From a virus (Duplodnaviria; Caudoviricetes): a stretch of 64,000 nucleotides of DNA. This document shows, in pieces, positions 15,479 to 54,819 of the stretch; the first letter of the stretch is position 1, and each line of letters begins with the position of its first letter. A program made the translations under genes and the position numbers. Location of the stretch: positions 1,551 through 65,550 of the IMG/VR virus record IMGVR_UViG_3300034418_005508. One strand, 5' to 3'. Under the pieces are notes generated by a model, which made no database searches, was not told where the DNA came from, and worked only from the letters and a program-made list of their open reading frames with translations.

Positions 15479-18286
15479 TTAAGAATGAATGAGTTGCATG
15501 TAAACAAATGCGGCTGCTTCAAGCACGTCTTGGAACCCGTTTGCTTGAGCCCAGTCCTGATCGATCCTGATGTCGCTGCTGTCAGTACCACCTCCGTTTG
15601 ATTTGGACATGTGCATTTCTACTACAGGGTATCTACCAGTAAGGTCCCCCTTCTCATTACGTTCTACTGGTATGCTCACTTGTATACGTCCTGTATTTCT
15701 ATTTCCTGGCAGCATTACATCTACTTCAGGCACACCACCGGATGTTGCCAATGCATTCAAGACCTGAACTTGGAACTGGTGTGCTGGGGTGTAACCAAGT
15801 ATGGCTTGTCCAAATGATCCAGTTGTGCCCAATCCAGGTTCTGCATTCAGGTATCCACGAACTGCTTGATCTGCATCCATTCTTATTACTCTGCTAACTT
15901 TATTGTTCCCCGATCCTGCAGATACATGCAGGTTTACCGTAGGTATGGTCTCACCATTGACTGACCAGAAACCGTACATGACGTTGTCAATTTTCCAATC
16001 AGACAGAGGGTTATCTGCAAACTGCTCATCTTGGTTGCCTTTAGAGTCTGTGATGATTGCAGTTCTCCATGCTGCTGTTTCTGCACCAATCTGTTGAGCT
16101 GTTGGGTCTGTAAGATCAACTGCCCCAGCAAACGAAGACAAGTCTGTTTGCGTTGCAGCTTTACGCAGTGCATCTGATTCTTCACCATCTGCATCCCCAA
16201 GCGCAACAGGGTACTCAGGCCAGTTAAATGTAGTTCTGCTAGCATCATTGATGAATGCATCTGCAGCTTCTGATCTCTTACTTGCTTCTGCATCCAAGTT
16301 GGTCAGGAAGTTCTCATATGCCATATCCATTCCTACACCACCTTTAGGTAGAGTAGCAATTGTGTGGTCGTTCTCTGGTCCACCGACTGTAGGATTCTTT
16401 CCGTCTGGTCTTCTATTGGTGTCACTGTCAGCTTGTTTAGCATCGTACATTCCTTGTACGTAGCTAAGTGCTGTATTAAACACCTCTCTTGCTTCTGCGG
16501 GATCAAGTCCGAGACCTGCTGTACCCTCCCCGATATCTGTGTTAGTTAAGAGTGGGGTAAGCATATCGAAGATGTTTTGATTGTTTGGTGACATAGCACT
16601 AGGTCTACCATTCCAGAAGCCTCCGTCTGTAAACAAGTCCCTTATCATCTCAAATGCAAGAGCTTCACCAGCAACCACGTTGTCTGGTCTTGTATCACCC
16701 TGTGGTCTTATGACGTAATTGATTGCATCCTGTGTGATGTCACCTGAAGCAGCAATAGCCGCACTGTGAATAGCTTGAGGAGTATTACCAACTTCAGTGT
16801 TTGCATAGTCAATCATAGCATCAACTTGGTTAGACCTGTCGGCATGGTTCATCAAAGCACCCTGCAACTGCAAGAGGTCCTTCAATACTACTTGCTGATC
16901 TCTTTGGCCGCCGGCTGACATATCGCTAGCAAGCTCTACAACCTCGTCATAGCTCAAGTCTTCTATGTACGACTCTACCTCTTCAAGGTTACCAGGGTCA
17001 ACGTTGTTGGCCTCAAGCGCCATTGAAAGCTCTGGGTAAGCTTGTGTAGCAGCATTGAGTCTATCGATAGCTTTGTTGTGCAATGTCTCCTCCCCTTGTC
17101 TAAGAAGGTCTGCAGTAACGTTAACATTGTTAGGATCAACTCCCTGCTGCTGAGCGATGGCTGCAACAACATCTTGTGTTGTACCACTAAACACAGGTCG
17201 GTTAACCACATCCTGAGTCTGTGCTTGATTTTCAAGCTGCTTGAGCCACAATGGGTTGATCTGGAAGGTGTTCCCTCCACCGTACACACTCTGACCTGTG
17301 AAGCGTTCTGCATCTGACTGGTAGTTGTCTACGACACGCTGCTTGTAGATGTTAGCTACAGCCTCACGCATCTGACCCAATCTACCTGATTCTTGCGCAG
17401 TCTTCAGGTCTGCAATCTGTGCTTGTATGTTGTCTCTCTTGGTACCTGTTGCACCAGCCATCTCGAGTTCGAGTTCCTGCACTCTACCTTCTATCTGTGT
17501 CTGCAGGCTACCAGGCTCCATGTCCCACGTGTTTATCTCAGACTTGAAGTTCAAGTAGGCTTGTACCTCAGGTGATCCCAATGCAGCTTGCACTGCTTGT
17601 GATACAGCCTCGCTGTCCTTACCACTGATGGTCTGGCCTTGTGTGGTTCTGATGACAGGTATCTTCATTGTATTACCCTGCTCATCTGTATATGTCTGGA
17701 AGTCAAAGCTAGCTGCAGTATACCCACCCTCTTTCATGATAGGTAGAGCATTGACCTGCTTGAGTATCTCTGCATTGATGTCTACCGCTTCAGGGACAGG
17801 TTCAGCTTGGTAGTATGAGCTTTGTACAACATACCCGTTCTCATCATACTCTATGCCCTGGTATGGTTGATATTCACCATTCTCGTCCCTGCGAGTGAGA
17901 CTCCACCCCAACCACTTTTCATAGTCGTCAGGGTTTAGTTTTTGCTGTGCAGCAGTCTTAGCTTTCTCTCTTTCCTCGTAGTTTTTTTTCAAAGGGTTGT
18001 AGCCCTGCAAAAACTCTCCTGCATCACGTGCAATGTTTGTACCGTACATCTCGTACCTACCACTCTCTGCGTACTTCTTAGATCTAGCATCTATTGTAGC
18101 TCTCAGCTGTGCTGCTTTTTCTACATCACCTGCAAAGTCTGCAGACACCAGCATGTCTGACAATGCATTCTGTGTCAGTGTATCTGCAGCAAAAGCATCT
18201 ACATATCTTTTACGAAGTATCTCGTTAATCTTTACAGACTGCGGATCTCTGTATACACTTCTATATGGTTTGAACTTGTACGCCAT
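15479..18286 (-). CDS. Putative virion cargo (ejected internal) protein
   Basis: 935 aa, helical and acidic. Lies between cargo protein 1 and the RNAP as in crAss-like genomes; TAATG-coupled to the upstream gene. Confidence 0.65.
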   Translation of the reverse strand: MAYKFKPYRSVYRDPQSVKINEILRKRYVDAFAADTLTQNALSDMLVSADFAGDVEKAAQLRATIDARSKKYAESGRYEMYGTNIARDAGEFLQGYNPLKKNYEEREKAKTAAQQKLNPDDYEKWLGWSLTRRDENGEYQPYQGIEYDENGYVVQSSYYQAEPVPEAVDINAEILKQVNALPIMKEGGYTAASFDFQTYTDEQGNTMKIPVIRTTQGQTISGKDSEAVSQAVQAALGSPEVQAYLNFKSEINTWDMEPGSLQTQIEGRVQELELEMAGATGTKRDNIQAQIADLKTAQESGRLGQMREAVANIYKQRVVDNYQSDAERFTGQSVYGGGNTFQINPLWLKQLENQAQTQDVVNRPVFSGTTQDVVAAIAQQQGVDPNNVNVTADLLRQGEETLHNKAIDRLNAATQAYPELSMALEANNVDPGNLEEVESYIEDLSYDEVVELASDMSAGGQRDQQVVLKDLLQLQGALMNHADRSNQVDAMIDYANTEVGNTPQAIHSAAIAASGDITQDAINYVIRPQGDTRPDNVVAGEALAFEMIRDLFTDGGFWNGRPSAMSPNNQNIFDMLTPLLTNTDIGEGTAGLGLDPAEAREVFNTALSYVQGMYDAKQADSDTNRRPDGKNPTVGGPENDHTIATLPKGGVGMDMAYENFLTNLDAEASKRSEAADAFINDASRTTFNWPEYPVALGDADGEESDALRKAATQTDLSSFAGAVDLTDPTAQQIGAETAAWRTAIITDSKGNQDEQFADNPLSDWKIDNVMYGFWSVNGETIPTVNLHVSAGSGNNKVSRVIRMDADQAVRGYLNAEPGLGTTGSFGQAILGYTPAHQFQVQVLNALATSGGVPEVDVMLPGNRNTGRIQVSIPVERNEKGDLTGRYPVVEMHMSKSNGGGTDSSDIRIDQDWAQANGFQDVLEAAAFVYMQLIHS

Positions 18287-20958
18287 TATCTTCTTCTTTT
18301 ACGTCTCACTGCTTTCGCTCTGCGAATATAACCACCTGTGTTACCACTTGGTCTTTTTACTCTTCTTCTCACGCGTCCTCCCAGTTGTTTTTCTTCGCTC
18401 TCCTCTAGCTTCTCTTCTTGTTGTGCTACAGCTTCCTTAGACTCTTTTTCTGCAATGTCTTGGTTGTTCTGCTCCTTCTTCTCTTGCTTCTTGCGGGCGA
18501 AGTATGCATTTATCTGCTCCTCTGTGTAGCCCATGTCTCTGAGCTGCTGTGCTTCGTATATGCCATCAGCCCCAATCTCTCTTGCAAGTCTCTCCTGAGC
18601 TCTGTATTCCAAGCTGTCTCCTGCCATACCAGCAAGTCTGTCAGCCATAGCATCAAGTGCACCAAGCTTCTCTTCACGTCTGTCTCTGATCTGCTCACGT
18701 GCAAGAGATGCAGCGAACTGACCAGCCTCCAATCCAAGTTCAGCATTGGCTTTGTTTGCCTCAAGCTTCATGCGCTTTTCTTCTGCAGACAGCTCTTTGT
18801 TTGCTTTGTTTTCTGCATTTGCAATCTCTCTATCTGCTGCTTGCTTTCTCTCCAACCCTGCAATCATGTTAACCATGCTAGCTGGACCCCCACCGCTGCC
18901 TTCAATTGCAGCCATGGTAGAACGGAAGTCATTTGCATTTGCAGAACGCTCAGCATTCAAGTTAACTCTAGGCATGTTAGGTGCCTGCACTGATGCAGCA
19001 CCTGGGCCTGTTATGTATGCAGGCTGTGACTTAAATGCATAGATGGGTGGTATAAGCTGAGCTCCCATACCAAGCATTGCCAGTGTTGGGATCTCTCTAG
19101 TCTTAACGTCTTCGATGTCTCCTGGATCGTCTGGTGTTTTCTCACAGCACTCTTGCTTCTTTGTACCATCTTCACACTCACATCCTGGAGTAGTAATAAT
19201 CTCCTGCTCTACCTCTGGCATCTCCCTGCGTACTTCCCTAGGTTGTTCGGGCTTTTGCGGTATTGTAGCACTCTGAGTTTGATCACCCCACTTACCGTCT
19301 ACCTTAATCTTTTGGTTGTCTGGTACACGAGAGTTGTACTCCTCTTGGTACTTTTTTACATCCTGTGTGTCATCTACGTTAAACCCGTCCTCACCGAAGT
19401 CGATGTCTTTCACCCAGTGGCTCTCATTCTGCAGTCTACCGTCTACGTCTTTGAGTGTAACGTTAGAGTAAAGGTTATCCCCAGTCTTGAATTGTAGCAG
19501 GCCTTCTGACCAGCGAGTCACCTCTTCTCTTCTTTTAGCTGTACCAGACTCGTTGTCTGTTTCTTTAGTTACTTCACCATCTTTGATGTAGAACTTTTCT
19601 CCCTCCTTAGCATCTTTGGGGTAGAGTGGGTGGTCAGACCCGATCTCTATTTCGCCCTCACGTATACCTGTTTTAGGCTTTTCTTTTTCTGGTGGGAGTG
19701 CATCTCCTTCTTGATACTTGCGTACACCTCCCTCTGCGTACACAGAAGACTCTCCACCAAACTGCATCACCTTAGGGGTTCTACCAGCTTTCTTCTCTTG
19801 CATCTGAGCAAGTTTCTGTATGTCTTTCTGGCTAGCACCACCATTCAAGAGTTCTTTATGCCTCTGTGCAAACGTCTTACCACCCAGTTTCAGGTAGTCA
19901 GAGAAGATGTAGTCTGTCTTTTTACCGTCTTTTTTCATGTGTACTTTGTCCATTGTTTCCCCACCCTCGACTTCTGTCTGAGGATCGAGCATGATGCCGC
20001 CCTGTGAATGTTTCTTGCCTATGAACTCTACAGCTCCGCCCGGCAATGGCTCTGTCTTTCCTCCCTCTAGTTTGGTTCCACCGTATATGTATGACCTGCT
20101 GTACTCACCCCCATCACGCATGCCTCGCTGTGCCAGGTATGAGTTTGTGATAGAGCCGACGTCAGCAAATCCTGTCTCACCTGATGTCTCGAACTGCTTT
20201 GCTTCTGCAGCCTGTTGTGCAAGCTGAGCTTGTTGTGCAGTACGCATTTGCTTTACAGCTTCCTTACGGTCTTTCTCTTGTTGCTTCTTCGCTTTCTTAG
20301 CTCCGAAGATACCACCAGCTACACCTGCCAAAGCTTGCAGTCCTTTACCAAACACAGGTACCTTGGCCAATGCTTGACCCACTTGGCTATCTGCTGCAGA
20401 CTTAAACCCTGCACCAAACCCTGCACGCTTTGCAGCCTTACGCTCCATTACATTGTTGCGGTATGGATCGGCTACTGCAGCCTTACCAGCCTTCTTTTCT
20501 GCATGCTTAGCAGCAAGCTGGGATAATGCATTGACTGCAGTACCCATGCTGACAGCTCCCTTCAGTCCTTCTTTGAGTCCCTTTGCCCCGTCTTCAAATA
20601 TGCCTTTAACTCCCCCAGCATCTGCAAGCTCATTCTGCTTCTTCATTTTGAAGTTTTGGATGGCTCCTTTGAGTCCACCCATGTTCGTCAAACCTGAAGC
20701 TGCATCGGATACAATTGGGGTGCTTCCATCTGAGAAGTCTAGTCCCCCACCCAAGAAGTCAAGTGCTCCACCCTCTTGCTTCTTTCGCACGTTCTCTGCA
20801 AAGATTGCTCTCTTTACTAGAGTTGGGTCGTTTGACTTTTTGGCACGGGCAATGCACTCAGCAGTTACCTTTCCTTTGCAGTATTCAGTGAACTTGCCGA
20901 CAGTGCCCTTCCGCTTCATTCGCCTATTGGCTTTCTGTATCCATTTGTTATCACTCAT
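18286..20958 (-). CDS. Cargo protein 1-like internal virion protein with repeated xxxGG motifs
   Basis: 890 aa directly after the muzzle. Contains GKKHSQGGI..EVEGGET, an N-terminal GKFTEYCKGKVTAECI..KRAIFAENVRK module, a Gly/Ala-rich amphipathic segment, and KQEGG/MQFGG/YAEGG/KQLGG motifs. Confidence 0.7.
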   Translation of the reverse strand: MSDNKWIQKANRRMKRKGTVGKFTEYCKGKVTAECIARAKKSNDPTLVKRAIFAENVRKKQEGGALDFLGGGLDFSDGSTPIVSDAASGLTNMGGLKGAIQNFKMKKQNELADAGGVKGIFEDGAKGLKEGLKGAVSMGTAVNALSQLAAKHAEKKAGKAAVADPYRNNVMERKAAKRAGFGAGFKSAADSQVGQALAKVPVFGKGLQALAGVAGGIFGAKKAKKQQEKDRKEAVKQMRTAQQAQLAQQAAEAKQFETSGETGFADVGSITNSYLAQRGMRDGGEYSRSYIYGGTKLEGGKTEPLPGGAVEFIGKKHSQGGIMLDPQTEVEGGETMDKVHMKKDGKKTDYIFSDYLKLGGKTFAQRHKELLNGGASQKDIQKLAQMQEKKAGRTPKVMQFGGESSVYAEGGVRKYQEGDALPPEKEKPKTGIREGEIEIGSDHPLYPKDAKEGEKFYIKDGEVTKETDNESGTAKRREEVTRWSEGLLQFKTGDNLYSNVTLKDVDGRLQNESHWVKDIDFGEDGFNVDDTQDVKKYQEEYNSRVPDNQKIKVDGKWGDQTQSATIPQKPEQPREVRREMPEVEQEIITTPGCECEDGTKKQECCEKTPDDPGDIEDVKTREIPTLAMLGMGAQLIPPIYAFKSQPAYITGPGAASVQAPNMPRVNLNAERSANANDFRSTMAAIEGSGGGPASMVNMIAGLERKQAADREIANAENKANKELSAEEKRMKLEANKANAELGLEAGQFAASLAREQIRDRREEKLGALDAMADRLAGMAGDSLEYRAQERLAREIGADGIYEAQQLRDMGYTEEQINAYFARKKQEKKEQNNQDIAEKESKEAVAQQEEKLEESEEKQLGGRVRRRVKRPSGNTGGYIRRAKAVRRKRRR

Positions 20959-23900
20959 TATCTGTACGAATTACGGAACTTGGTACCGGCAGAATACAAA
21001 TATATCAAATTTTTGCTCTCGTTATTGCTGATAAGGCGTACTCCTAAGTAGTGTCCAATGAACTTCTTCTGTTCGTACCACTGCTTTTCCGCGTTTATGT
21101 ATTCTGGGTTAGGTACCCCCTCATAGGTAAACATAGGAGTGTCCTCCCTAGTTGACTCAACTTTGGTTGTGAGTTTACCTACTACGTTAGGTTCACCTGT
21201 ATTAATATAGCTATTGGTATTTACTACGACAGCGGCCAAATCTCTGAATGAGTTGATGTACCATATCCCATCCACAAGCCTACAGTTGTTGAGGTAGTTG
21301 ATTTCTGTAAACTCTCCGGATATCTGCGTAGTGTTGTAGACATAGAATCTGTCAAAGATTGGGAATGTCTGCCTCTTGAACTCTGTTGTATAGTCCTCAC
21401 TTCTACTCTTTGCATCAGCCCAGTAGTACACGTTGCTGTACAGTTTAGCCATTGCTGGGTTAGCATTGTCAATGAACTCTAGCTCAAAGTTGTACAGTGT
21501 ATTGTAGAAGTTACCTGGGTTGTCTTCATCGTTGTGCATGTACACACTACCCTTGTACATTGTGTAGTATGTCTGCTCACCCGTAATGAAGATGTCTGGT
21601 ACGTAGCTGTGTCTGCTGATCCATATCTGCAGGTCAGGTAAGTATGACAATGTCCACCCACTTTGTGTAAAGTACGTAGGGTTACTCAAGCCTATAGGTC
21701 CTGATTTCACATTACCCTTGTTGGCTGGGTGGTTTATGTCAGAAGCAATCTCCCTTGCTGTGTCAGAAGGACCAAGCTTGTCTATAGCTGTGTTCTCTCT
21801 GAATGCCTCGAGATTACGTCTATGTGTGTATTCTCTCTCGCTCTTGCTGAGCTTAACACCAGTTTTAGAATTGTTCTGCTGTACAGCAAAGAACATGTTG
21901 TTCTGTATCTCTATGGTACCGTCTTGCAGCCCATCTATTAGAGTCTGTGTTGGTAGAGGTTCTCGCTTTGTAAGAATGATCCTTTTGAACTTGGGGTCAT
22001 ATCCTACGATAAAGCCCATGGGTACATTCGTATTTGTAGGAGCGTCTGGGTAATACGGGAACTCATGAGCATCCACGTTTATACCGTACCGTTCTATCTC
22101 AAACGGTATGTTCTCTCTGAACCAATGGTTCATGTTCCCCATCACTTCTGTGATGCCTTGGGTAAGCATGTGTACTTTTCTGCTTCTACGTGATACATAG
22201 AAGTGTCCTACTTCAGTTGTGTATGACGAAAGTCCTGACATAGTACCACCATACCCTATCTCAGATTCCTGTAGCTCGGTTGGTGGTATTGCGAATATGT
22301 CACCGCTACCAATGAATGCCTTGACACTACCCAGCTCCAGCTGTTCATTACCCTTAGTTTGGAAGAGAGCTTTCTCTGTATGTACATACAACGTGTCGTT
22401 CATGGTGAACATGTCTGTGATGTCACCACGCTTCTTAGGTATGTCAGCGTAATCGTTTGCCAAAAACTCCCTGTACCTGTCAGACAGTGCTCCTGTTGCA
22501 GATTTAGATCTGATGATTCTATTTCTGAACTGATCGTTCTCTTCTGTCCCCGCTCTCACTTTAGGGAATGGAACTGCTACCCTCTTATCCTGCACAAAGC
22601 TGAAGTGGTCCTCATACAACAACTGGTCTTGCTTTGTGAAGTCTTGTGTTGGGGGTGAGAACAATACCTCTGCTGCTGTATTGAAGTCAAAGAACTTCGT
22701 CGCCTGCCCCTTCTCACTGTCCTTCTGGTGCCTGAGTCCTATGTTGTCATCAGACTCTACCATGAACGTAAACAATGACGTGACTGGGTTAGAGTTGCCT
22801 TGCTGCCAGTTGTTAGCGTTTAGCAGTGTTTCAGATATGAACGACTCTATTTTGCCGACCTCTGTGCTGTTAGGGAACTCTGGGTATGTTGTATCTGTGA
22901 TAGTAGTAATGAAATTTCCCTGCCACACACTCATACCACCTGCAGTTCCCCAGTTGGTCAAGAAGTCATTAAGACTCAAGAAGTCTGGTACGTCTTTCTG
23001 TCTAGTGTTTTGTATGTATCCCAGGTTAACACCATTAGTTCCTGGGTTACCAATAACTTTGAGAGCATCAGTCGAATTAAGGCCAGAAGCGCCTGAAGGT
23101 CCTGCGTCACCCAAAGCACTAGACGCTCTGAACCAAGAATGGCCATAGCTATGAGATGTAGTGCGGAATGCGTACTTAGAAATGTAAGTATCCCCACCAT
23201 ATACTTCTGTTGATTCTGCTCCACTGAAGTATTTTTTCACTGGAGACAAGACCGTGCTACCACCTGCTGAAGTGAAGTCAAGATCATTTATGGCTGCGGT
23301 TGTACCAGTCTTCAATGCTGCATAACATGCCCCTTCTGCTAAATTATACTTGTCTTCCCACTCTTTGAACTCTTCATCGATTGAGTAGTAGTAACCAGTC
23401 CATACCAGTTCTTGCTTGTCGAATGGTGTATATACATCAGTTTTCAGCGAGCATACATTGATCAGCCAAGCCATAGGATAGCCCCACTCGTAGTCTGCAC
23501 CAGCTAGAGTGTAGTTCAATCCTTTGAAGTTAGAATTTTCTGTGGTTACACTCGAGCCATATAAGTACACGGCATGGTCAGGGATTGGTCGTACAGGTTT
23601 GGGATCTTTACTTGCTTGGAACCAAGCGTCAGGGAACAAGAACTTGTCGTCGTCTCCCCAAGCTGCTATGTTAAATGGTCCGTATTCACCTCCTCCGTCG
23701 TCAGATCCATCTCCCAGATACCAAGGGAATCCAGGTATTGCATTACCCTTAAATGGTACGAGTCCTTTCAAGTGAGGCAATCCACTAACTAGCGCCATAA
23801 CAATTGAACTCTCCCCACCCCTGTTGAAGATGTACTGAGCTCCTTTGAATGAACTAGACTCTGCTGTCTTCAAGTTACGTTGCCCTGGCAGGTATGTTTT

Positions 23901-26900
23901 GCTACCAGGGTCAAGCATGAATGTAAACTGAGAGTTTCTAGGTGCGCAGTAAGAATCTACAAACTCAAATCCTGCAGGTTTTATTAAAGACCAATCTTTG
24001 CCTGCGCTGTTGTACCATATGTTTTGTTGTCCATTCCATCTGTGGTCACCACCCTTGATGATCTCTCGGTGTCTATATATCTGCTCTGGGTGATAGTGTG
24101 CACAAGCTACGTATGCCCCACCTCTGTATGAACGGATGCGGTATCTACGAGCACGCAGCTCGGACACGTCGCTGTAATCCTCTATGTCATCTACGTCTTT
24201 TTCTTTACCGCGCAGACGTCTGAATGCTCTCTTGAACAAACCACCGGGCTTGTCTTCTTGGTCAGCAGGTGGATTGTCACTACCGTAGGGATTGCTCACA
24301 TCTTCATCTGCATCGATGAACGTATCAGTCACGTCATAGATCTCACCATCTACGTTGTAGTCGACAGTGTTACCCAACGCTTGTGATATCCATCCCAGTG
24401 ATGGGAAGGTTGTGAGCTTTTCTTTGTTCTCCTCATCTTCTTTACGAGCCCCAAATACACCAGGCCCGCCCTGGAACTGTCTAAATGCAATAGCCGCCTG
24501 GCATTGTATGTGTGTGACTGTGTTAAGAGTTGGTCTCTTACGCAGCATGTTAAAATCGTGGAATGTAAAGACTGGGTTCGCGTAGTAACGGAACATCCTG
24601 TCTACAATCGTAGGGCCTGCGTAAGGAAACTGCTCAGCCCTGTTGGGGTTGGGTACTTGTTCCTGTCCCCTTCCTGCAGCATCTGGATTGTTGTCTGTGT
24701 GGTAAGCTGCTTTCCACTTTGACGCTACAGCCATAGCGGTCTCCATGTCGCTTCTCAATCCACCAAATGCGTAGAATGCATTGAAGTATGGCCCCTTACG
24801 CGCCAGCAGTCTGTTCTGGTTTGGGGAAGATGCATACCTAGGCATAGCTGGTATGGCCAAACTTTGCCCACTAATAAGTCTGTCAGAGTTTGTACGCTTA
24901 GCATAATAGATCTTGTACCCTTGTATTTCCTTAAGCATGTGCTTAGGAATCTTCAGGTTCTCCAATTGTATACCAAGTATTCTTACAGTCTCACTGGTTA
25001 TAAGCTTTTTCTTTACATACGAATCACTGGCAATCTTTTTATCTCTGTGATTGGATATCCATGCTGCTCCCAGGTAATCCAAATTGTTCTGATAGGTTTG
25101 TGGTATCCCTGTAGTTGGGTCTTCAAATGCAGCCACAAAACCTCTTTGAGATAGGTTACCTGCATTTTCAAAGAATATCCCACCGTAGTTTCGATCCCAA
25201 GCAAGTGGGCCATACTGAATGCCTGTATTGTTACCCGTCAGTATGTCCTCTCCTGCACCTGAGTATTTCACGTATGAAAAGTCAGGGTTGTAGTTAGATG
25301 GCATTCTATGATGTCTCACTTTTCTGCCATACAAGCTGTAGTACTTATGGTAGTAGCTATCAAACGAGTATCCGTCTGTATTGCCTGGGCCTATGATGTT
25401 TGTTTGTTCTCCTGTATCTCTGTCTACATCTGCGTGCACCCAATCAAAGTTCTCTGGGTATCTTTCACTCTGGTTCTCCCAGAACCCCATGTTCATTTTC
25501 AAAGCAGTATAAGCACCATCGTCTCCATGGTTAATTGGGTCACCTCCTGCGAAAGAGGTATTGTAGCTTGTATCAATGACTTGATATATACGTGCTACTT
25601 TAGACTGTTCTTTCAATTCAGGGGCGTGGAATCCGTGACTCTTAAGGTGAAGGTTCTCACCTTTGTGAGTGAACCTGTCACTCTCCATGAGGTAGTCTCC
25701 CAAACAATCTGTTTCATTGGGGTCTAGTTCGCCCAGCAAAAACTTGTAGTAAGTGTCCGTAGGTACTGGATCTCCATTGCAGAGACCAGAGTTGCTTATG
25801 ATATTTGCTTGCTGCTGCGTTGTAACCAACGGAACCTCACGTCTTCCTGGTATGTGGTACGCAAAGGTCTCTGTACCGTCTCTAAGTACGAATGATACGT
25901 AGAATGCATAGACGTCACCACGTCTAAAGCTCTTACCTCTGTACGAGAATCTGTTGTCTTTATATCCTCTACGTGTAGCCTGAGCGAGATTATAGCTAAC
26001 TCCGAATTTCCCATCACCGAGTCTTAGCTGTATCTGACCGCTGTCCGGGTATCTCAGGTAGTCTGCAATTGAACTAACGTAGTCTGGGTACATAGAGTCA
26101 ACAGCATCTATACCTAGGGTAGCAGGGTTTGCGGGAGCACCGTTTTGCTCTGACTGGTAGTAGGTTTGACCTATACCATCAAATCCTGCAGGGTGTTCTT
26201 TAACCGCATAGTACGGCATGACCATGGTACCATATCCCTTGTTTAGAGTTATGATGTCATACACCCTTCTATCAAAGCCTTCCACAGCTTTGACTACAGG
26301 CTTGATTTTAATGTTAGATGCGTATCTCTGGAACCCTATGTCTTTACGTGAGATCAGGTTACCTAAGTACAGTCTGTCGTTAAGTTGAGTAAGTGTCTTC
26401 GCAGTCAAGTACTTTACTTGATCTGCTACAATGTCAAGAAGACTTAATGTGCTTGCATCCTCTCTGCCGCTATATACGATGGTAAATATGCTGCTACTCA
26501 GCCCGAAGTTAGAACTGCTTCGTTGTTCAGATGCTTGTCCTGAAGTTTCTACAAACGGTGCTGGAGGGGGCGATGTTCTTCTGTCTGCGACGAAATCTTC
26601 AGTATCAATACTTGGATCATTGAACGCTCCGGTAGGAGGAGTGGTGTTACCTACGATGTCAAGTGTATTGATACTATCATATGCATCGTCATCATTTGTG
26701 CTCTGGATCTGTATTCTGTCCAGCTTGTACACGTTCTCTGCATTCCCTATGCGCTGTATTACAGCAGGCTGCAGGTACTTGTACTGCACCGTCTTTGGTA
26801 TGTATACCTCCCAGTGTACGGACTTCGTTGTTGTTGTCCCACCCTGTGCCCCAATAACAATGTCTGCTGGTACTGTTGTATCGGGTTCTGGGATGATGTA

Positions 26901-28615: not shown

Positions 28616-29084
28616 GCTTCTTGAATCTTAAGTATGCTAAGTCATCGTTTTTCAGGAGTGATGTTAACTTCTCCTTGTTCCCCTTGATTCCTCGGGTTGG
28701 GGTAAACCTGTATGCAGACTTGTTAGATATCTTACATCTAGACTTCTGCCAGTGATATTTGCAGTACCAGGGGTCAGTGTAGTAGATAAACCACTTCTCA
28801 CCTTCCCCTGATTCTGCGTCGTAGAGCTGCTTACCTTCTGCAAGCAGTTCTTGTTTGTACTTGTTGCTCTCCCACCAGTCTATCGTAGGCTTACTGGGAT
28901 TGCGCTCTATGCGTCGTATTGACAAGGTGGACAGGTTGCTGCCCATGCTGAACTCCTTACCATCAAGGATCATACTGATGACCTCCATGTTGAACTCTTC
29001 ACACAGTTGCTTAAACAGTCGTGTTTCGATGGGGTCTTCAATATTCTTTACATAGTCCTTATGTATGTCCTTGATGGTATGCAT
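28602..29084 (-). CDS. crAss-type IHF-like DNA-binding protein
   Basis: 160 aa. ILDGKEFSM..NL..LSIRR...IDW.ES pattern, at the conserved position upstream of the ring and muzzle genes. Confidence 0.65.
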   Translation of the reverse strand: MHTIKDIHKDYVKNIEDPIETRLFKQLCEEFNMEVISMILDGKEFSMGSNLSTLSIRRIERNPSKPTIDWWESNKYKQELLAEGKQLYDAESGEGEKWFIYYTDPWYCKYHWQKSRCKISNKSAYRFTPTRGIKGNKEKLTSLLKNDDLAYLRFKKHGDI

Positions 29085-29890: not shown

Positions 29891-29901
29891 GTCTCTTGTT
29901 A

Positions 29902-32784: not shown

Positions 32785-33090
32785 TTAGCACCGGCAGTTC
32801 CACTTGCGCAGTGACTTATTGATTCTTGAATTAGGATCTCTCTTACCCTTAGATCCTGTTCTCTTTGCTTTCATTCCACACATACGTGAGCAGAATGACT
32901 TTCTCCTGGACTTGCGTTTACCTGAGGGGTTAGACTCAGTTACTGGAGCAGCAAGTTTGCTCCCCGGGTTAGCAGCTCTGTAGGATGCCCTACCTTTTGC
33001 ATTGAGACCTCCGCTTGGGTTTTTACCAGCTTTCCTAGTCCAAGCAGCTCCTCTCTGATACTGTCTTTTATTTTTACTGAAGTATGTCAT
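32785..33090 (-). CDS. Small basic phage protein, DUF6321-like
   Basis: 101 aa. AWTRKAGKNPSGGLNAKGRASY...RRKSFCSRMCGMK...SRINKSLRKWNC. Confidence 0.75.
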   Translation of the reverse strand: MTYFSKNKRQYQRGAAWTRKAGKNPSGGLNAKGRASYRAANPGSKLAAPVTESNPSGKRKSRRKSFCSRMCGMKAKRTGSKGKRDPNSRINKSLRKWNCRC

Positions 33091-39406: not shown

Positions 39407-39407
39407 T

Positions 39408-45400: not shown

Positions 45401-46277
45401 GTTTTCTAAAATCTGGTTTTGAGTTCCTGCCGTATACGGCGTTTCTAAGAAAGTGTATTTGTCCGGGGGCAGTTATTGCTTCAGGGGGAAGATCAAACGC
45501 TGACCGCTGGTGCTTAGGCTGAGCTGGGGCTAGTCTACTAGCTGAACCGGGAGTACCGTTGAGCCACTTTGTTTTTGTCCTTACCGAGTTCCACTGTATA
45601 CCATCGTTAGCAGTTCCTAGATCTTGAACCTTCACTGTTGCCCCTATGTTACTGCTGTCAGCCCCAGTTAAGAATCTGGCTACGTCAACTGTGGGGTTTT
45701 GGTGTGCTTTATCGCCAGTTGATGCTGGCACTCCAGCAAGAACGAATGGTACTTGCCTCTTATTTACAGCTACCCCTAAGTCACTTCTGCCCCCTTGTAG
45801 CAGCAAACACCCTTCTAGTATAACTATATCACCGGGCTGGACTTGATCAAAAAGCTTTTCAAGCAGATATACTTTTACTGCCAGGTGCCCATCTGTAAGA
45901 TATCTGAACTCTGTCCGCTCGATGTACTCTGCTAGTGTGTTTCCTGTTATAGTAACTAGAGTTAGGTCATCTGACTTTATTTTAATAGACGTGGGCTGCA
46001 CACCTACCAGCTCTCTTATAGGCTTATTAAGCAGACCGTTCTCAAAGTTTCCCTGAAGGCCGTCACCTCCGTTAGCGCCCCCGTACAGCAAAAGATCTGC
46101 AGAAGTCCACCCCTCGTAAGCTAACTCTTCGCTTGAGAGATACCGTATTTCTGAGGGAGAATGCGCGGAATTGTGTATGAATATATCAAATGCGCTAGCG
46201 GCATGAGCCTCTACGAACGTAAATACGGGTAGATCTCTGCCCCCCTCTCTTGTAGAAAATCCAAGTACTCTAGCCAT
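39408..46277 (-). CDS. Giant Cys-rich tail-associated protein with GCTDxxAxNY/FxPxAxxDDGSC repeats
   Basis: 2289 aa. Three full and two degenerate GCTD repeats, a Cys/Pro-rich stalk, and a C-terminal helical Cys-containing domain with an aromatic insert. Occupies the tail-hub position. Confidence 0.75.
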   Translation of the reverse strand: MARVLGFSTREGGRDLPVFTFVEAHAASAFDIFIHNSAHSPSEIRYLSSEELAYEGWTSADLLLYGGANGGDGLQGNFENGLLNKPIRELVGVQPTSIKIKSDDLTLVTITGNTLAEYIERTEFRYLTDGHLAVKVYLLEKLFDQVQPGDIVILEGCLLLQGGRSDLGVAVNKRQVPFVLAGVPASTGDKAHQNPTVDVARFLTGADSSNIGATVKVQDLGTANDGIQWNSVRTKTKWLNGTPGSASRLAPAQPKHQRSAFDLPPEAITAPGQIHFLRNAVYGRNSKPDFRKLDLTRDRMDMVDPQSQQRIDRRTSTYRSQRKGDQFSLLEFHGPQLNIGETHGYINYGLYAWKYVVGPSYGDTKYGASSIGGSYLPQTVGGDFLPTGLGIPNQGYELGDTYGYDDSATRSNARCENLRVHPDRGIYRSPYYPHAQSEFMHYVTFYKWENTNFTINSTTNYNITNGVGSAINSNDVNIWAWYASWAFQSSYNEASGNPDASNQTALGGSQYMRLEALNAVLIGNIGWQDFISNAFYMGADPDNTSAHSFQNYISTSENQELVPAYDKLFSGVYHATRIHQTFYNASRTIGANIGGGEAGFTPASTGLTSGWPTVASAAVNSQNLSSSVLFTYTAFVYAESPQAIAISNDDYAPWATSDIPTFTDVYGFSPITEQGAGDTLHRVKYRVNVTSGGGSSTLPPTYAIAANGINGVNSTFCTDKNSEATWAVLGDENETSLVRFRNLSLCNEELDYDRCGCRNVVESLPVGEVGKGTSPDSKRFETVVIYPRNVVTDQYSETGTGGADAFPSLLYVNSYFSVTGNANVDNGYALNYLADGTLAAATSVEYRTTTNSTQTVLLSEFGLGFNGYGDIFQTEFLGLSLADPTDVLADTNTFTYKYFPGRDPYIDQDLQFFVHDSADEARVFATIGGAGYNSAASSDDEPHRHMLLFSAGSLAIAGTDPKRAHVDLGWTQSWENTEVECSILSLGITTECSDVSKDKPPYRNRKFVVIGDHTIDTGFEDNDGDGDPDNSIKGCTDENAVNFNPNANVDDGSCYFCETALDSDANALHFVQALPLLINTTPGNVDSVSANGLYGTAPATYIGNVGGGLADVPTSSPDIYDWQDGNLFNAVNTSENALTSGSGGGPNTAFTYFAMRHDALLDRLVPASDQGSQQQLGNDSYSGGYQVALNDMITSELASRWVCQIYTYDDWQNRTVPANTFGNGWAVESNGDGSTFAQTNVYYDIFGNFSGVGLESFDEVATLANQYTGDASSFYFRNFDPDDASTVTDIGLEAGREYVAVLRFQPLQTCGQKQFYYMAYHFFVEYCECTDPTSTSAGNYAGADNAPWQGTPWDGVSFYPGVNTPTDQFNTFLADGSGVFTPNFCVTSEDGISTGLLNSRICEFQGEDESVTCGNFYSWCLTEIATDCVGPDENGNVYGEANFSILIDGFFVQSDPGQGGTLGDAYQLIEPQTGFAFYYIVEITVDGILEQTVVSHIVENGLYVPNPEIAITQSVISTFQGANAVINAGPFDFDQDNNGSVGEAVIGVTLQATGLIDNSGQFVSLLDVVDYIVDDDGNPTSVICPAELISYVSTSEDCVDLVEGCMDETAVNFNPDANSDDGSCEYIPCEEIFNDALNSIFITDVESTRASSDCVYVAEPSDGGEPYYYYDPNYDGSMTVTVQDYSVSSPTGALGANEGNFVLFVAYVSGGNINVVGEAMVFYDNNVTAIQGLGEGEFLTMSNTAAAFIGVGDMTTTPITNGDPFGIGESLAGSEYEINVPLGALFGPTNDLTGGQYLLFVVPHIDATAVGENFGGLEDCIAEFGQFADEQTYHVIDMITNTDDCPQPCNQFTNPDDCPDNVAGCTDPGAENYDPDATIDDGTCVYCTTCDFCDLYPTHPECLLCDKRADETLTAGSRGFSASLRDCEGGGKCCADQSATNYDPECRGENADNGQCTYACNGAGCTDCEDDPTGEGCVEDPCPDPNNPDCVNPPIVNCLETGDCPCVGNDCNPECLLNPELCNPGQQPCEQSVANNECEPIETFTTTTIVCNPIFEEAALNEEYDKDWLTQVLMSCASGDALKYMFRLKAGIHLDDVDTTKLALIAYLFIEGSKNNLDCLFDCDNYEAGVKRNGKVRGFSNRMKEIDCKARWAAGRYQRFAASSNYRKGTTVKYTRVVNGVSTSSYYTAKSDWSPGMTLPGVTADKKQRVWEACINVKFQSGGNPENYFQTFVDFIKRYCDNCEIDPLANSGIYESNEGQGIGPNNRTQDFGGNSSIGFQDEDGNEIIF

Positions 46278-50109: not shown

Positions 50110-51558
50110 TTACGATGCAGTGCAAGTCAAGTCGAGCGAAGTATCGAATCTGCGGAGCAGGATACCAGCTGTCTTCAACATGTGCACAGAAGCACCGTCT
50201 ATATCTGAAGCTCGCGTGTCGGTTTCAGTGAAGCCCTTAGGCACAACTGAACCTGCAACACACCAGCGGAGCATTTCGCGTCCCTTCTTGTTCAACATCT
50301 GGAGGTTGTTCTCCCCGTCATAAGATGACTGGTCAACAAACACCATTCTGTATGACTCAAGCGGCAATCCAGACTCAGGGTGCTTCTGAGAAGCCTGAGC
50401 AACAGGGCCGTGATCGAACAATGGGACCTTAACCACGTTCACCGTGTGACCATCGACGTGGTCGTACGAGGTGAAGTAACCAGTGATACCCAAGCTACGA
50501 CCGCTACCAGTGATAAACTTAGACTCAGTAGTTCTGAGGTAAGAGTTTGTAGTAGTACCGACACCGCTAGAGCTAACACCGTTAGCGTAGTAGCTGCGGA
50601 GAGCCTTGTCGAACTCACGTGCACCACCAATACCGGTGTACAAAGTCACCTGCTTGTCGGTAGCATCCGTCATGCCGTAGAACAAGTCACCAATCGTGTC
50701 CTCCAACTTCTTCTGCGTGAGAGTAGAGTAGGTGTCCTTATTGATGATCTGCTCGAACAAACCAGGACCAGATATAACTGGTTGGCCATTCTCGTCCAAC
50801 ATTCTGTTAGATCCTTTGTCATCATAAGTCTTGTTTCCGTACCAGTAGTACATCTCACACTCTTCCTTAAACTTGAGCATGTGACGGTACTCCTCGTAGT
50901 CCATCCACAACTTCGTAGAAGAACCTTCCTTAGTTGGGAGGTTGAACTCTGCTACGTAGTCTTTAGCGTTACCAGAGAAGTGGTAAGACTTACGCACAGT
51001 ACCAATCTTAGAACGGACCAACCCGGGAGCTGTCCAGTTAGAAGCGTTACCGCGTGAGAAGTCAATACCAACGTTAGCAAACAACATGCCCCAAAGAGCA
51101 CCTGCTGCACGGTCCTCTGAAGGAATAGCTGTAACGTCTGGAGAAACGATTTGGAGTTCATACTCGTAACCGTTACCAACTGATCTAGGTTCGCTCATAA
51201 TCCGAGCCAACACACCAGTCTGTGAGACCAAAGTGTATGGGAAAATGAACCACTTGTCAGGGAAGGTCAATCTGAAGGGTGCACCTCCAGTTCCGTCTCC
51301 TGTGTTAGCGACAACTGGGCGAACGTTAACTTCATGGGTCTTGACACGATACTCAAATTCAAATCTATTGATTGACTTCGTGTTACCAACCCCTTCAGTC
51401 AAGAAGGAAAGAGGAAACTTCTTTTCTTCACGTCCGGCCAAGTGCGTAATGATGGGAGAGAGCTCTTCGGGCTTCTCCATCAAAGCATTAACCAACGAGT
51501 TTGTGTCGGTCATCTGCTGGTCATTGTAGTACGTTTTAAGTACCTGCATCAAAGCCAT
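50110..51558 (-). CDS. Major capsid protein (crAss-like, HK97 fold)
   Basis: 482 aa. FPLSFLTEG, RKSYHFSGN, KLWMDYEE, GPGLFEQI, LYTGIGG..EF, HVDGH.V.V...PLFD, HPESGLPLESYR. Confidence 0.92.
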   Translation of the reverse strand: MALMQVLKTYYNDQQMTDTNSLVNALMEKPEELSPIITHLAGREEKKFPLSFLTEGVGNTKSINRFEFEYRVKTHEVNVRPVVANTGDGTGGAPFRLTFPDKWFIFPYTLVSQTGVLARIMSEPRSVGNGYEYELQIVSPDVTAIPSEDRAAGALWGMLFANVGIDFSRGNASNWTAPGLVRSKIGTVRKSYHFSGNAKDYVAEFNLPTKEGSSTKLWMDYEEYRHMLKFKEECEMYYWYGNKTYDDKGSNRMLDENGQPVISGPGLFEQIINKDTYSTLTQKKLEDTIGDLFYGMTDATDKQVTLYTGIGGAREFDKALRSYYANGVSSSGVGTTTNSYLRTTESKFITGSGRSLGITGYFTSYDHVDGHTVNVVKVPLFDHGPVAQASQKHPESGLPLESYRMVFVDQSSYDGENNLQMLNKKGREMLRWCVAGSVVPKGFTETDTRASDIDGASVHMLKTAGILLRRFDTSLDLTCTAS

Positions 51559-52747: not shown

Positions 52748-52751
52748 TACG

Positions 52752-52759: not shown

Positions 52760-52818
52760 TTAATGGGTTTGGTTTGTATTTCTGTAAAATTATTTTATAC
52801 AGTTGCTATTATTATATA

Positions 52819-54819
52819 TCACTTGCGCTTTCTGCGCTTCTTTCGTCTATCTATCATTCCTCCTCTTCTACGTAGTGACTTGAGCGAGTTAAGTCCAAAC
52901 TCGTAAGCTTTCATATCTTCAAAAGATATGTAGCCTGGAGCGGATTTATCTAAGTTAATTGGTTGGGGTCCTCGTGATGCTCCTGCTCTAGATACCAAAG
53001 GTTCAGAGCTGCCTGGGAGTGAAATGTTTAGCCTTCCTTGATCAGCGTGTACATCAAAGCTTTGTCGTATTCTTATAGGTTTCCCGCCCAGCGTTTCAAA
53101 TACCTCAGTATTGAAGAGTTTATTTTTTGCCCGTTCTGGGAGTTTGTTTATTGCTTTTTTAGCTCTATTAGGAAGTCTGTCCAAGAGTGGAGAGGTTGTT
53201 CCTTGTTGAAACGGTTGGAGATCCCAGTCATCAACCATATCTACTCTCATACCCTTATTCATTGGGGTTGTCTCTATTCTGTATCCACCCATCACACCAT
53301 ATAGGTCATCAGTGTATCCTACAGATACACCTTTATTTCCTTTAAGACTTGCTTTACCAGCTGCCAGGTGTTCCCCGAATGGTATCTTAGGTCCATGTTT
53401 CCATTCATCTGAGAGAGGTGCTGTCCATTTTCCTCGTGCAATCAAATCTTTCTTTACAGCTTTGGGTATCTGAATGTCTCCCACATTGGACGCTGCAAAG
53501 TCAAGTTGGTCAGGGTCTCTTAGCTTAACCTCTCGTCCGCTGACTCCGGAAGGTTTGTATGAACCATACCGTTGTTCTTTTCCAAGACTTAACCGAACTG
53601 CATCAATTCTGTTTTCAATTTGATCTCGTTGATTTTTTGGTATTCTATCATACGGCACAATCGGATTTATGCCCCTGCCCCTGTGTGCCCGGAATACGTT
53701 TTCTACTTGTTTCTTCTTGCTGAATACACTTTGCAAAGTTTCTTTTGGGCCCAGAGACTTTTTACCGTACCCAAAAGGAACTTTAGAGTAGGTCAACCCA
53801 AATCTAGCGGGGGCTCTAAACAGTCCTAGGGCACCCTTTCCCGTCATAAATGCACCTGCAGGATCAAATGCTATATCTGCTGCTACTGCTTTAGCCCCAG
53901 TTAGGCCTAGTGTTGTAGACGGGGAGTAGTTTTCTTGTTTTATACCTCTGGCTGCATCTGTGTAGGCAAACGGGTTTGTATTTATTTTCTTTCCTGTAGC
54001 AGCATTGAGGAGTGCGCCTGTAGTAACTCTACCCGGCCATGACATTGCATCTGTAGCTACGTTTATCATGTTGTTGCCTGCAGTATTGATGTCTTCTCTT
54101 ACCCCAGACTCAAACTTTTTTCGCTTAGACTTATCTGTCTTGGCGTAGTCTCCTACAATGCCTGACCCTGTTCTTTTAACAGCGTCTTCTACAGAGTCTA
54201 ATCCTTTCCTGTCTTTCTTTGCTACTACCTCTGCTGTCCCTAACAAGACGGGCATTTGAGTGCCGTCTTCAAACGTCATGATTCTGGTGCCTGGAACTGT
54301 ATTCTTATCCAGCTTGTGTTTTTCTGACCACGTCAAGGATACTTTTTGCTTCTCCTCTTTATTATCGTCCTTAGCCCCACCAGTCTGCATCTTTTTTACT
54401 TCTCCCCCTTTTTGATACGTAGCTGGGGTTTCTATCACGGTACCGTGATTTGGTCCCGTAGGCAAGTTGGTTATGCCGGGGGGTACATTCTCGTATGACT
54501 GTATCAGATGTCCCTGCTCATCTACTTTCTTAATGTTGATAGGTGCTTTCATACCTATCGTATTGAACGGGGTATTAGGAGGGACGTCAGGGAAGACCAT
54601 AGTTTGATTGAACTCCCCGGCTTTGTGGTAGGGCCTCAGCCCTTCTTTCTGTTGTTCAGGCGTTTCTGCAACCAGCGGCTTAGCCTGTTCTTGTTGCTGT
54701 CTATGTTCAGCCAACAAATCGGTACCCTGAGCGTAGGCCTTGTATACGTCAAGTATAGAGCCCTCCATACCGGATGCTCTAAACTCCTCTAGCAATCTCC
54801 TACGATCAGCGTTTGTCAT
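52819..54819 (-). CDS. Multi-module putative internal virion protein (QxGG-tagged) between portal and scaffold
   Basis: 666 aa. YQKGG and MQTGG after a Pro-rich N-terminal domain; ends RRRGGMIDRRKKRRKRK. Confidence 0.75.
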   Translation of the reverse strand: MTNADRRRLLEEFRASGMEGSILDVYKAYAQGTDLLAEHRQQQEQAKPLVAETPEQQKEGLRPYHKAGEFNQTMVFPDVPPNTPFNTIGMKAPINIKKVDEQGHLIQSYENVPPGITNLPTGPNHGTVIETPATYQKGGEVKKMQTGGAKDDNKEEKQKVSLTWSEKHKLDKNTVPGTRIMTFEDGTQMPVLLGTAEVVAKKDRKGLDSVEDAVKRTGSGIVGDYAKTDKSKRKKFESGVREDINTAGNNMINVATDAMSWPGRVTTGALLNAATGKKINTNPFAYTDAARGIKQENYSPSTTLGLTGAKAVAADIAFDPAGAFMTGKGALGLFRAPARFGLTYSKVPFGYGKKSLGPKETLQSVFSKKKQVENVFRAHRGRGINPIVPYDRIPKNQRDQIENRIDAVRLSLGKEQRYGSYKPSGVSGREVKLRDPDQLDFAASNVGDIQIPKAVKKDLIARGKWTAPLSDEWKHGPKIPFGEHLAAGKASLKGNKGVSVGYTDDLYGVMGGYRIETTPMNKGMRVDMVDDWDLQPFQQGTTSPLLDRLPNRAKKAINKLPERAKNKLFNTEVFETLGGKPIRIRQSFDVHADQGRLNISLPGSSEPLVSRAGASRGPQPINLDKSAPGYISFEDMKAYEFGLNSLKSLRRRGGMIDRRKKRRKRK

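Follow-up and report, generated by a model that had tools for sequence, protein, structure and literature searches.

A Q-x-G-G peptide at fold edges and homology breakpoints of candidate virion cargo proteins in a crAss-like phage

Crassviruses are among the most abundant phages known. Several described systems resemble the element studied here in one respect or another. The phage T4 capsid targeting sequence is found at the N-terminus only and is removed by the prohead protease. Gly-Gly sites are known from SUMO (Q-T-G-G, with Ulp1/SENP), from adenain ((M/L/I)-x-G-G) and from double-glycine leaders with their C39 peptidases. MuF-type polymorphic toxins are encoded beside phage portal genes, as is one of the proteins described below, the constant domain of which is DUF192 and not MuF. 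The closest system is the virion of crAss001, whose structure (Bayfield et al. 2023, PMC10172136) leaves open how several megadaltons of cargo are chosen, stored and injected. As described there, residues 425-552 of the C1 protein gp45 form a domain that interdigitates with the portal wing loops, a helix made of residues 214-245 rests on ring proteins 1 and 2, and the RNA polymerase and C2 protein classes also occur in virions. Here we analysed a stretch of 64,000 nucleotides (the window, positions 1,551 to 65,550 of IMG/VR record IMGVR_UViG_3300034418_005508) from a divergent crAss-like phage, in which a Q-x-G-G peptide, hereafter the tag, recurs in five different proteins. The tag is enriched, is conserved at the peptide level and lies at fold edges and homology breakpoints, and one homologous tag, in crAss001 only, is ordered and continuous with a portal-bound domain. 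We consider the chances about even that the tag is an uncut hinge or docking seam between modules of virion cargo proteins.

A recurring peptide in the window and its relatives

A first-pass annotation of the window had listed 13 Q-x-G-G peptides in five proteins, and all of them were found in those genes, on the minus strand, where all long open reading frames (ORFs) of the window lie. The tag proteins, which sum to 2572 amino acids (aa), are an 890-aa C1-type cargo protein (KQEGG, MQFGG and KQLGG), a 666-aa protein with a DUF192 domain, hereafter the carrier (YQKGG and MQTGG), and three small Lys/Arg-rich proteins of 283 (KQEGG), 340 (LQRGG, MQNGG and CQGGG) and 393 aa (KQRGG, MQAGG, RQRGG and FQSGG). 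A Lys or Arg stood at most three residues upstream at 10 of the 13 sites, and the variants reported alongside (KKKGG, KKEGG, LRNGG, MLKGG, MRDGG, YAEGG, RRRGG and YQRGA) were all present. CQGGG exists as well, at 29920-29934, but its nearest relative has CQGAG, so that it is probably not a tag.

The five proteins contain 10-15% Gly and are of low complexity. Per-protein shuffles nevertheless gave a mean of only 1.75 Q-x-G-G (standard deviation 1.29, maximum 8), and none of 5000 reached 13. The same held for block shuffles of 15, 30 or 60 residues (means 1.65 to 1.75; 0/5000) and for shuffles with every GG fixed (mean 3.8, maximum 11; 0/5000). Because the five proteins had been chosen post hoc, all 43 ORFs were also pooled, yielding 15 Q-x-G-G against 6.0 expected, a count reached by 6 of 5000 shuffles. 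A Gln stood two residues ahead of 13 of the 47 GG sites in the five proteins, compared with 2 of 105 in the other 38 ORFs. The first-pass annotation had seen no motif in the RNA polymerase, muzzle, giant tail, portal or capsid proteins; the RNA polymerase proteins do lack it, but FQSGG in a 2289-aa protein and RQEGG in a 173-aa protein had been overlooked. Both are probably at chance level, and no other tag-like context was found around the GG sites of the 2289-aa protein. These counts confirmed that the recurring Q-x-G-G peptide of the window is real.

Relatives were sampled as 79 loci fetched with a ring-protein-1 query, with their ORFs classed by position. Strict Q-x-G-G was about twofold enriched both in ORFs after the muzzle gene (80 observed, 43.7 expected) and within 3.5 kb before ring protein 1 (45 and 20.9), and was not enriched in the muzzle gene (28 and 24.4) or further upstream (21 and 24.3). 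The strict form is limited to certain clades: ORFs follow the muzzle gene in 54 of the loci, of which 26 carried at least one and 13 at least three, and alternative dialects such as KKKMGG or MYKKGG replace it elsewhere. The nearest relatives retain GG, with Q swapping for K or R. The consensus of the Q-x-G-G instances in relatives was [K/R]-[K/R]-[M/Y/K]-Q-x-G-G; over 283 distinct tags, Met (32%) and Tyr (28%) led at P5, and Lys was the most frequent residue two and three positions ahead of this bulky residue. Judged from the sequences, Q-x-G-G is the local form of a junction tag that reads roughly [K/R]-[K/R]-[M/Y/K/F]-[Q/K/A]-x-Gly-Gly.

In homologues the tag recurred at the same positions, namely behind short N-terminal leaders (many tags lie 4-8 residues from the start, as in MKYKQKGG, MTYKKQSGG and MKNKYQKGG), between swappable modules and ahead of poly-basic tails. 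The proposal that tags mark boundaries between unlike segments was upheld, the tags coinciding with fold edges and homology breakpoints. Of the ends of high-scoring segment pairs (n=4223), 33% lay no more than 10 aa from a tag, and of their starts (n=724) 27% did; the corresponding values for random positions were 6% and 8%. These figures are descriptive only, since the sequence pairs are not independent. Codon use at Q, G and G equalled background (p 0.29-0.62), which implies that selection acts on the peptide and not on a conserved DNA word; a DNA-level recombination linker was ruled out on the same ground. GG followed by at most three residues closes 27 of 1105 complete ORFs (e.g. KKKMGGKKC, RRRGGRR), and nearly all ORFs with GG at the extreme C-terminus are small basic ORFs before ring protein 1. 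In a Q-x-G-G-poor clade (loci L030-L071), the ORFs ending about 500 nucleotides (nt) before ring protein 1 encode small basic proteins that terminate in a near-fixed ...AAAGKKKMGGKKC or ...KKRMGGKNC, that is, the tag plus a C-terminal Cys.

Tag positions in the C1-type, carrier and small basic proteins

Residues 14-82 of the C1-type protein matched gp45 378-444 (phmmer against the PDB, 7qog_M, E 5.8e-9; BLASTP, E 9e-14), and a second BLASTP segment paired residues 349-407 with gp45 480-568 (E 0.007). This match covers part of the 890-aa protein, of which only aa 7-59 matched in the phage collection. The protein had no match to crAss_CARG1 (Pfam PF25725) at E up to 5, and hhalign of the C1 alignment against gp45 returned a low-probability C-terminal match only (21.8%, E 0.001). 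We therefore call it C1-type, for its position, two shared modules and fold, and not a member of the Pfam family. In the BLASTP pairs KKQE-GG faced NWNAFGG (424-428) and VMQFGG faced MFAYGG (558-563) of gp45. Among related loci, the first tag was retained in L002 (KKQEGG) and L007 (RYQAGG), and KQLGG was not retained as Q-x-G-G in L002 (KRLGS).

An AlphaFold2 (AF2) model of C1-type residues 270-415 (predicted local distance difference test, pLDDT, 78.8) was ordered over model residues 21-130, with pLDDT below 50 from residue 132. A wide VIA-align search placed model residues 24-127 on 7qog_M 425-548 (Z 8.5, root-mean-square deviation 3.3, 86 of 126 residues aligned, 27% identity; next hit Z 4.0); neither Foldseek nor its second look picked up gp45, which was recovered by the wide VIA search only. 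About 50 loci encode this portal-binding-type domain in ORFs behind the muzzle gene, always with x-x-GG before it and GG after it, and these GG were retained in 41 and 40 of 42 aligned homologues (32-84% identical) while the flanks varied. In gp45 itself, which has 21 GG in 842 aa in contexts such as AYGG, AFGG and FAEGG, the portal-bound segment opens with the tag A425-F426-G427-G428 and the helix segment starts four residues after AYGG 207-210. The portal-binding-type domain also has an invariant His, three Glu, a Tyr and a Ser in the 42 homologues (aa 317, 329, 331, 334, 350 and 353; H48, E60, E62, E65, Y81 and S84 in model numbering), a set that, from the alignment, looks like a metal or catalytic site, although previous descriptions of the domain mention portal binding only.

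The carrier matched Pfam DUF192 (PF02643, UPF0127) with 18.5 bits (E 0.0022), under the 27-bit cut-off, and many of its homologues have a precomputed PF02643 hit. The AF2 model of residues 1-165 (pLDDT 79.6) was ordered to about residue 135 and fell below 50 from 138, and Foldseek returned 3m7a_A (E 2.5e-4, probability 1.00, template-modelling scores 0.45/0.53) and 3pjy_A (E 2.8e-3). According to the model, the constant domain has the fold of these two solved DUF192 proteins, and YQKGG sits on the fold edge, given where order ends. The literature search found no paper assigning a function to DUF192. A MuF (SPP1 gp7-like) domain had no Pfam or PHROG match in the carrier. The possibility that the carrier is a protease placed in the portal-to-capsid slot was rejected: the conserved part adopts the DUF192 fold and gave no match resembling a protease, and the C-terminal part differs between relatives.

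The 666-aa protein was absent from the records of the phage collection searched. Database relatives of the carrier numbered 178 at E <= 0.001, and homologues ranged from 150 to 1806 aa. The N-terminal 165 residues were 46-78% identical across 58 aligned homologues while the rest varied, and precomputed DUF2272, ART-PolyVal or SLT domains occurred in the C-terminal parts (120 listed of the 178). A GG followed the DUF192 fold within 12 aa in 115/115 listed homologues and 74/74 locus ORFs, and was a strict Q-x-G-G in 77/115 and 54/74. Beyond this junction the same modules reappear in varied combinations bounded by tags, with up to 7 tags per protein. In the cleanest cassette case, one locus (L115) reads DUF192-RDGG-VRYSNRRYKR and another (L105) has VVKYAEGG-module-LRSGG inserted in frame before the identical tail.

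The gene order portal, carrier, acidic protein, capsid protein was constant over 80 loci. A portal ORF lay upstream of the DUF192 ORF in 76 of the 80, the other 4 having no upstream DNA; the acidic protein came after the carrier in all 48 loci where the downstream DNA measured at least 1300 nt, and the capsid protein in 36/36 reaching far enough. In most of the 76 loci (L081-L160 examined) the portal gene ends a few bases inside the carrier gene (54816-54819 in the window); in eight loci the two are instead separated by about 415 nt. The overlap suggests that translation of the two genes may be coupled. The first 130 or so residues of the acidic 387-aa protein are almost entirely Asp/Glu, and it had no family match in the libraries searched.

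Among the small basic proteins, the 283-aa ORF was better started at 29890 (M16, MKYPDFKKKGG), as the first-pass annotation had it: this start agrees with those of the orthologues, and the listed start at 29935 overlaps the previous gene. Conservation among its orthologues in L001 and L002 extends to GVIK[KQ]xGG, beyond which the tails (8, 76 and 182 aa) are unrelated. The L001 orthologue of the 340-aa protein stops 19 aa after ALKRGG, and the L002 orthologue has KQSGG-MFEMTKKE at the place of MQNGG-MFELPKSE in the window. Both window proteins part from their orthologues exactly behind the tag. An alignment of seven orthologues for the 393-aa protein showed a common leader, M-x-Y-K-(K)-[QS]-x-GG; MQAGG was retained in L005 and L007, RQRGG stood opposite RRRMGG or KK-GG, and FQSGG lay within a window-specific insertion. 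The 340-aa and 393-aa proteins and the bodies of the 890-aa and 666-aa proteins had no match in Pfam, PHROGs or NCBIfam, and the best score of an ESM Atlas search (0.76) is a lead at most. The 340-aa and 393-aa proteins also contain, three times and directly after GG, a Cys-loop C-x(2-7)-C-[G/A]-A-Y-[D/E] (CQGGGCGAYE, GGCRKGQPCAAYD and GGSCGPGGCGAYD at 29920-29934, 31190-31250 and 31070-31120, minus strand), which was seen once in the 79 related loci (L002) and by its pattern could be a small metal or disulfide knot.

The 101-aa DUF6321 protein completes this group, with a degenerate tag, YQRGA, ahead of its module. In about 30 relatives DUF6321 stands alone and the gene begins exactly at the module (MAAW...); where the module has an N-terminal extension, or is fused in a 906-aa ORF after the muzzle gene, YKKGG, YARGG or KTGG precedes it. 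This pattern of fusion and tags implies that the small basic proteins share a module pool with the large cargo protein.

Hinge, cut site or address

In the reading that we favour, the tag would punctuate modular, largely disordered and very basic proteins carried inside the particle, built as a short leader or anchor domain, a tag, a repeated module-tag unit and a poly-basic tail. Gly-Gly would act as a flexible, uncut seam, and the bulky residue with Gln, Lys or Ala ahead of it as a small cap or handle at the module edge. Such strings of modules would surround the portal, tail barrel and DNA and would be threaded out module by module, and new cassettes could be inserted without disturbing their neighbours. 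For this phage we infer that the tag proteins are packaged, that their tags stay uncut and that they serve as seams or docking points. Several points weigh against this. Met or Tyr at P5 and the preferred Gln exceed what a plain hinge needs and would fit a reader protein or a protease. A cut after GG would fall exactly at the start of the stand-alone DUF6321 genes, and the polymerase protein carries a conserved zincin. The structural evidence is one tag, of dialect A-F-G-G, in a distant relative (capsid about 30% identical), and contact of the tags with any partner is putative. In addition, the record is 65.5 kb long and DNA with an identical 666-aa protein reaches 84 kb, which places about a quarter of the genome outside the record.

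The first-pass annotation had also proposed that the tag is a cleavage code. On this view the zincin of the polymerase protein or a host peptidase would cut behind Gly-Gly, either in the head or once the proteins are injected, and free small basic peptides and effector modules much as adenovirus core proteins mature; we regard it as rather unlikely. The invariant GG, the preferred P4 and P5 residues and the position at junctions of unrelated modules do recall polyprotein sites, and the DUF6321 starts just mentioned fit. HEGFH, at aa 1643 of the 3887-aa protein, is, as had been noted, the only protease-like motif seen in the window, and a role for zincins in processing polyvalent phage proteins is proposed by Iyer et al. 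2017 (PMC5512222). The 201 aa around it were conserved in giant ORFs of 4/5 Q-x-G-G-rich and 5/5 Q-x-G-G-poor relatives (9 of 10), an occurrence in both kinds alike that makes the comparison of zincin presence with tag richness uninformative, and the zincin region had no Pfam peptidase match. A host enzyme is conceivable, since a C48 control search matched the Bacteroides thetaiotaomicron genome and hosts of that phylum can thus encode such enzymes. Peptidase families C48, C5, C39 (PF03412) and S78, however, were found in none of five relatives (phage genomes, four of them at least 90% complete) and in no Pfam or PHROGs scan of the window proteins; a search for S77 (the T4-type prohead protease) was likewise 0/5, but its control matched nowhere. 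In the crAss001 virion (7QOG), gp45 is modelled without a break over residues 425-552, with A425-F426-G427-G428 coming first and the chain intact across the G428-W429 bond. Pro followed GG in 19 of the 283 distinct tags (6.7%, against 4.3% background), so that Pro at P1' is not depleted. Some tags are only 2-3 residues away from the C-terminus or 4-8 from the N-terminus, and a cut there would take off almost nothing. The replacement of Q by K or R in close relatives and by A in crAss001 makes a SUMO-type Q-x-G-G reader, or any Gln-specific chemistry, unlikely. On gels of crAss001 virions the bands range from 15 to over 300 kDa, and the polymerase subunits run at high mass (PMC6235969). This evidence concerns the virion and the sequence and not events after injection; on it, cleavage after GG in this phage is not supported.

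The other proposal of the first-pass annotation, a loading address, stood in so far as a short peptide is common to different virion-type proteins, but the address cannot be general. The tag was not found in the RNA polymerase giant proteins or the C2-position protein of the window, and since the counterparts of these occur in crAss001 virions it cannot be a general ticket. As a capsid-loading address, the tag would be a portable peptide that docks on, and is read by, an inner procapsid surface present in many copies, the counterpart of the T4 sequence. Its reader would be the scaffold-like acidic protein, the portal wing or the ring barrel, and more tags would mean tighter loading. We judge it unlikely. 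In its favour, exposed N- and C-termini bear tags, one protein can have several of them, and Lys/Arg is always beside them; the very acidic protein is encoded between the carrier and capsid genes in all 48 loci reaching far enough; the only tag resolved in a virion structure stands first in the domain interdigitating with the portal wing loops; and in T4 a conserved targeting sequence is all that the diverse internal proteins have in common (Rao and Black 2010, PMC3012670). Besides the untagged proteins, it has against it that tags are internal as often as terminal and that AF2 confidence is low for tags in isolation. The stronger claim, a position-independent code read by a conserved inner particle surface that alone suffices to load a payload and to set its exit order, is equally improbable. 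That the tag is a DNA hook, its K/R-flanked aromatic-x-x-Gly-Gly turns binding the minor groove or backbone in protamine-like condensers or escorts of packaged DNA, we consider very unlikely. Lys/Arg is extremely abundant in the three small proteins and in all C-terminal tails, and Lys precedes the bulky residue most often, but the gut dialect of gp45 (NAFGG, FAYGG) has no basic flanks, the single resolved copy lies on a portal-bound domain and not on DNA, and a tag also closes the DUF192 fold in a non-basic context (ETPATYQKGG). The view that the tag has no function of its own, being chance in Gly/Lys-rich low-complexity sequence, a recombination scar or a DNA-level linker, is largely refuted and keeps hardly any probability. 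The composition of the tag proteins, the chance-like appearance of CQGGG and of the two sites outside the five proteins, and the clear recombination of cassettes at tag points would suit it; the local-block and GG-fixed shuffles, the GG retained beside variable flanks in C1 homologues and in all 115 carriers, and the background codon use do not.

The tag predicts members of the cargo set that family libraries leave unnamed, namely three protamine-like proteins and the DUF192 carrier, delimits modules for expression and structure work, and would allow the threading of cargo as strings to be told apart from its cutting into pieces. If a code that alone loads payload were true, it would be a natural plug-in system for packaging and injecting proteins, with the carrier and the C1-type protein as two portal-docked strings into which cassettes could be spliced; were the tag a docking or address code, it would give a tool to load phage particles with proteins. 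If the tag is only a seam, it still explains the free swapping of effector cassettes.

Genomic context and comparison with known systems

The coordinates of the features are collected in Table 1. Family scans with Pfam and PHROGs also picked out ring proteins 1 and 2, a holin and an exonuclease. The capsid protein matched 141 records of deposited phages, all below 60% identity and the best about 30%, which makes the window part of a divergent crAss-like phage. The DUF6321 protein matched small proteins annotated as hypothetical in 512 deposited phage records, mostly T4-like cyanophages, cyanopodoviruses and pelagiphages, with 37.5-65.1% identity among the matches listed; this sharing suggests a marine origin of the phage. 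DUF6321 is a widely exchanged marine phage gene. The 2289-aa protein (39408-46277, minus strand), in the tail-gene region, is Gly-rich, with 27 overlapping GG positions, and gave no match in Pfam or PHROGs. An exonuclease-type gene (35110-36520, minus strand; phrog_704, E 2e-58, and Metallophos_2) lies within the structural block; its true start is probably later, since the listed ORF overlaps the upstream 145-aa ORF by about 160 nt.

Table 1. Positions of the tags, the tag proteins and their neighbours in the window
Feature	Position	Strand	Remarks
RNA polymerase-type giant protein, 3887 aa	3803-15466	minus	with HEGFH zincin signature
HEGFH zincin signature (aa 1643)	10526-10540	minus	sole protease-like motif seen
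C1-type cargo protein, 890 aa	18286-20958	minus	directly after muzzle gene; 3 Q-x-G-G and variants MRDGG, YIYGG, YAEGG
Tag KQLGG (aa 857-861)	18376-18390	minus	ahead of C-terminal poly-basic tail (18289-18375)
Tag MQFGG (aa 398-402)	19753-19767	minus	just behind portal-binding-type fold; aligns with gp45 F-A-Y-G-G 559-563
Portal-binding-type domain (aa 293-396)	19771-20082	minus	variant tag SYIYGG before, MQFGG after
Tag KQEGG (aa 60-64)	20767-20781	minus	end of FTxYC module; aligns with gp45 N-A-F-G-G 424-428
Muzzle-type giant protein	20958-27593	minus	phrog_15100 E 5e-58; crAss_MUZ_C E 0.0019, below cut-off
Small basic protein, 283-aa ORF	29084-29935	minus	leader MKYPDFKKKGG; phrog_27331 match at aa 28-61
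Tag KQEGG of 283-aa ORF	29633-29647	minus	
Small basic protein, 340 aa	29902-30924	minus	
Tag MQNGG of 340-aa protein	30289-30303	minus	
Tag LQRGG of 340-aa protein	30454-30468	minus	
Small basic protein, 393 aa	30968-32149	minus	
Tag FQSGG of 393-aa protein	31106-31120	minus	
Tag RQRGG of 393-aa protein	31238-31252	minus	
Tag MQAGG of 393-aa protein	31955-31969	minus	
Leader tag KQRGG of 393-aa protein	32126-32140	minus	
DUF6321 small basic protein, 101 aa	32785-33090	minus	Pfam DUF6321 E 1e-20
Degenerate tag YQRGA	33046-33060	minus	ahead of DUF6321 module
FQSGG (aa 2219-2223 of 2289-aa protein)	39609-39623	minus	1 of 27 overlapping GG positions (22 non-overlapping)
Crassvirus major capsid protein	50110-51558	minus	Pfam Crass_capsid E 1.7e-77
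Very acidic protein, 387 aa	51584-52747	minus	between carrier and capsid genes; scaffold-like by position and composition
Carrier protein, 666 aa	52819-54819	minus	portal-adjacent
Carrier RRRGG and basic tail	52822-52872	minus	
Carrier tag MQTGG	54376-54390	minus	
Carrier tag YQKGG (aa 135-139)	54403-54417	minus	
Carrier N-terminal helices and DUF192 fold	54418-54819	minus	conserved part; C-terminal part variable
Portal protein	54816-57029	minus	phrog_6547 E 2.5e-122; gene overlaps start of DUF192 carrier gene
Terminase	57040-58992	minus	family scans
RQEGG in 173-aa protein	60219-60233	minus	followed by GGSG

With the known Gly-Gly processing sites the tag shares Q-x-G-G itself, a bulky residue upstream of G-G and an occurrence in basic, core-like proteins. 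Unlike in those systems, no ubiquitin-like fold precedes the tags, the modules being DUF192, DUF6321 and others; the C48, C5 and C39 families are missing from the five relatives, and Q can be replaced by K, R or A. Double-glycine leaders are about 15-30 residues long, far longer than the tag leaders of 4-8 residues found here. As with the T4 capsid targeting sequence described by Rao and Black (PMC3012670), diverse payloads share only a short peptide, and several window proteins and their relatives begin with a leader plus tag (MNYKQRGG, MKYKQKGG). Here, however, tags are also internal and C-terminal, and most are not N-terminal.

The pre-toxin junction motifs of polymorphic toxins (PT-VENN and others; Zhang et al. 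2012, PMC3482391) are described as short conserved elements between a constant trafficking part and recombining cassettes, which is the arrangement seen here. There they form a single boundary before one C-terminal toxin of secreted bacterial proteins, whereas the tag occurs up to 7 times per protein, in phage virion-type proteins and with no immunity genes. The carrier resembles polyvalent proteins (PMC5512222) in its constant N-terminal domain, encoded next to the portal gene, and in the swappable C-terminal modules of its homologues; the description of polyvalent proteins, in the text available, includes neither DUF192 nor a fixed junction peptide between modules.

The nearest counterpart is gp45 of crAss001 (PMC10172136; 7QOG chain M), which shares with the C1-type protein the gene position after the muzzle gene, the FTxYC module, the portal-bound fold and the x-x-G-G punctuation, NAFGG and FAYGG bracketing the portal-bound domain. 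The two differ in module order and in dialect, [F/K/N]-A-[F/Y/E]-G-G with no basic flanks in gp45 against [M/Y/K]-Q-x-G-G with Lys/Arg in the window. The available text of the crAss001 paper mentions neither the motif nor processing, and our full-text literature search on the motif found no paper describing a Q-x-G-G tag, the papers it returned being unrelated to phage cargo as judged by title and opening of the abstract. Searches on crassvirus cargo yielded the structure paper and a review only. What the window adds is the extension of the tag to three protamine-like proteins and to the DUF192 carrier, together with the clean cassette cases and a model-based superposition that puts a tag where the modelled chain of the portal-bound domain begins.

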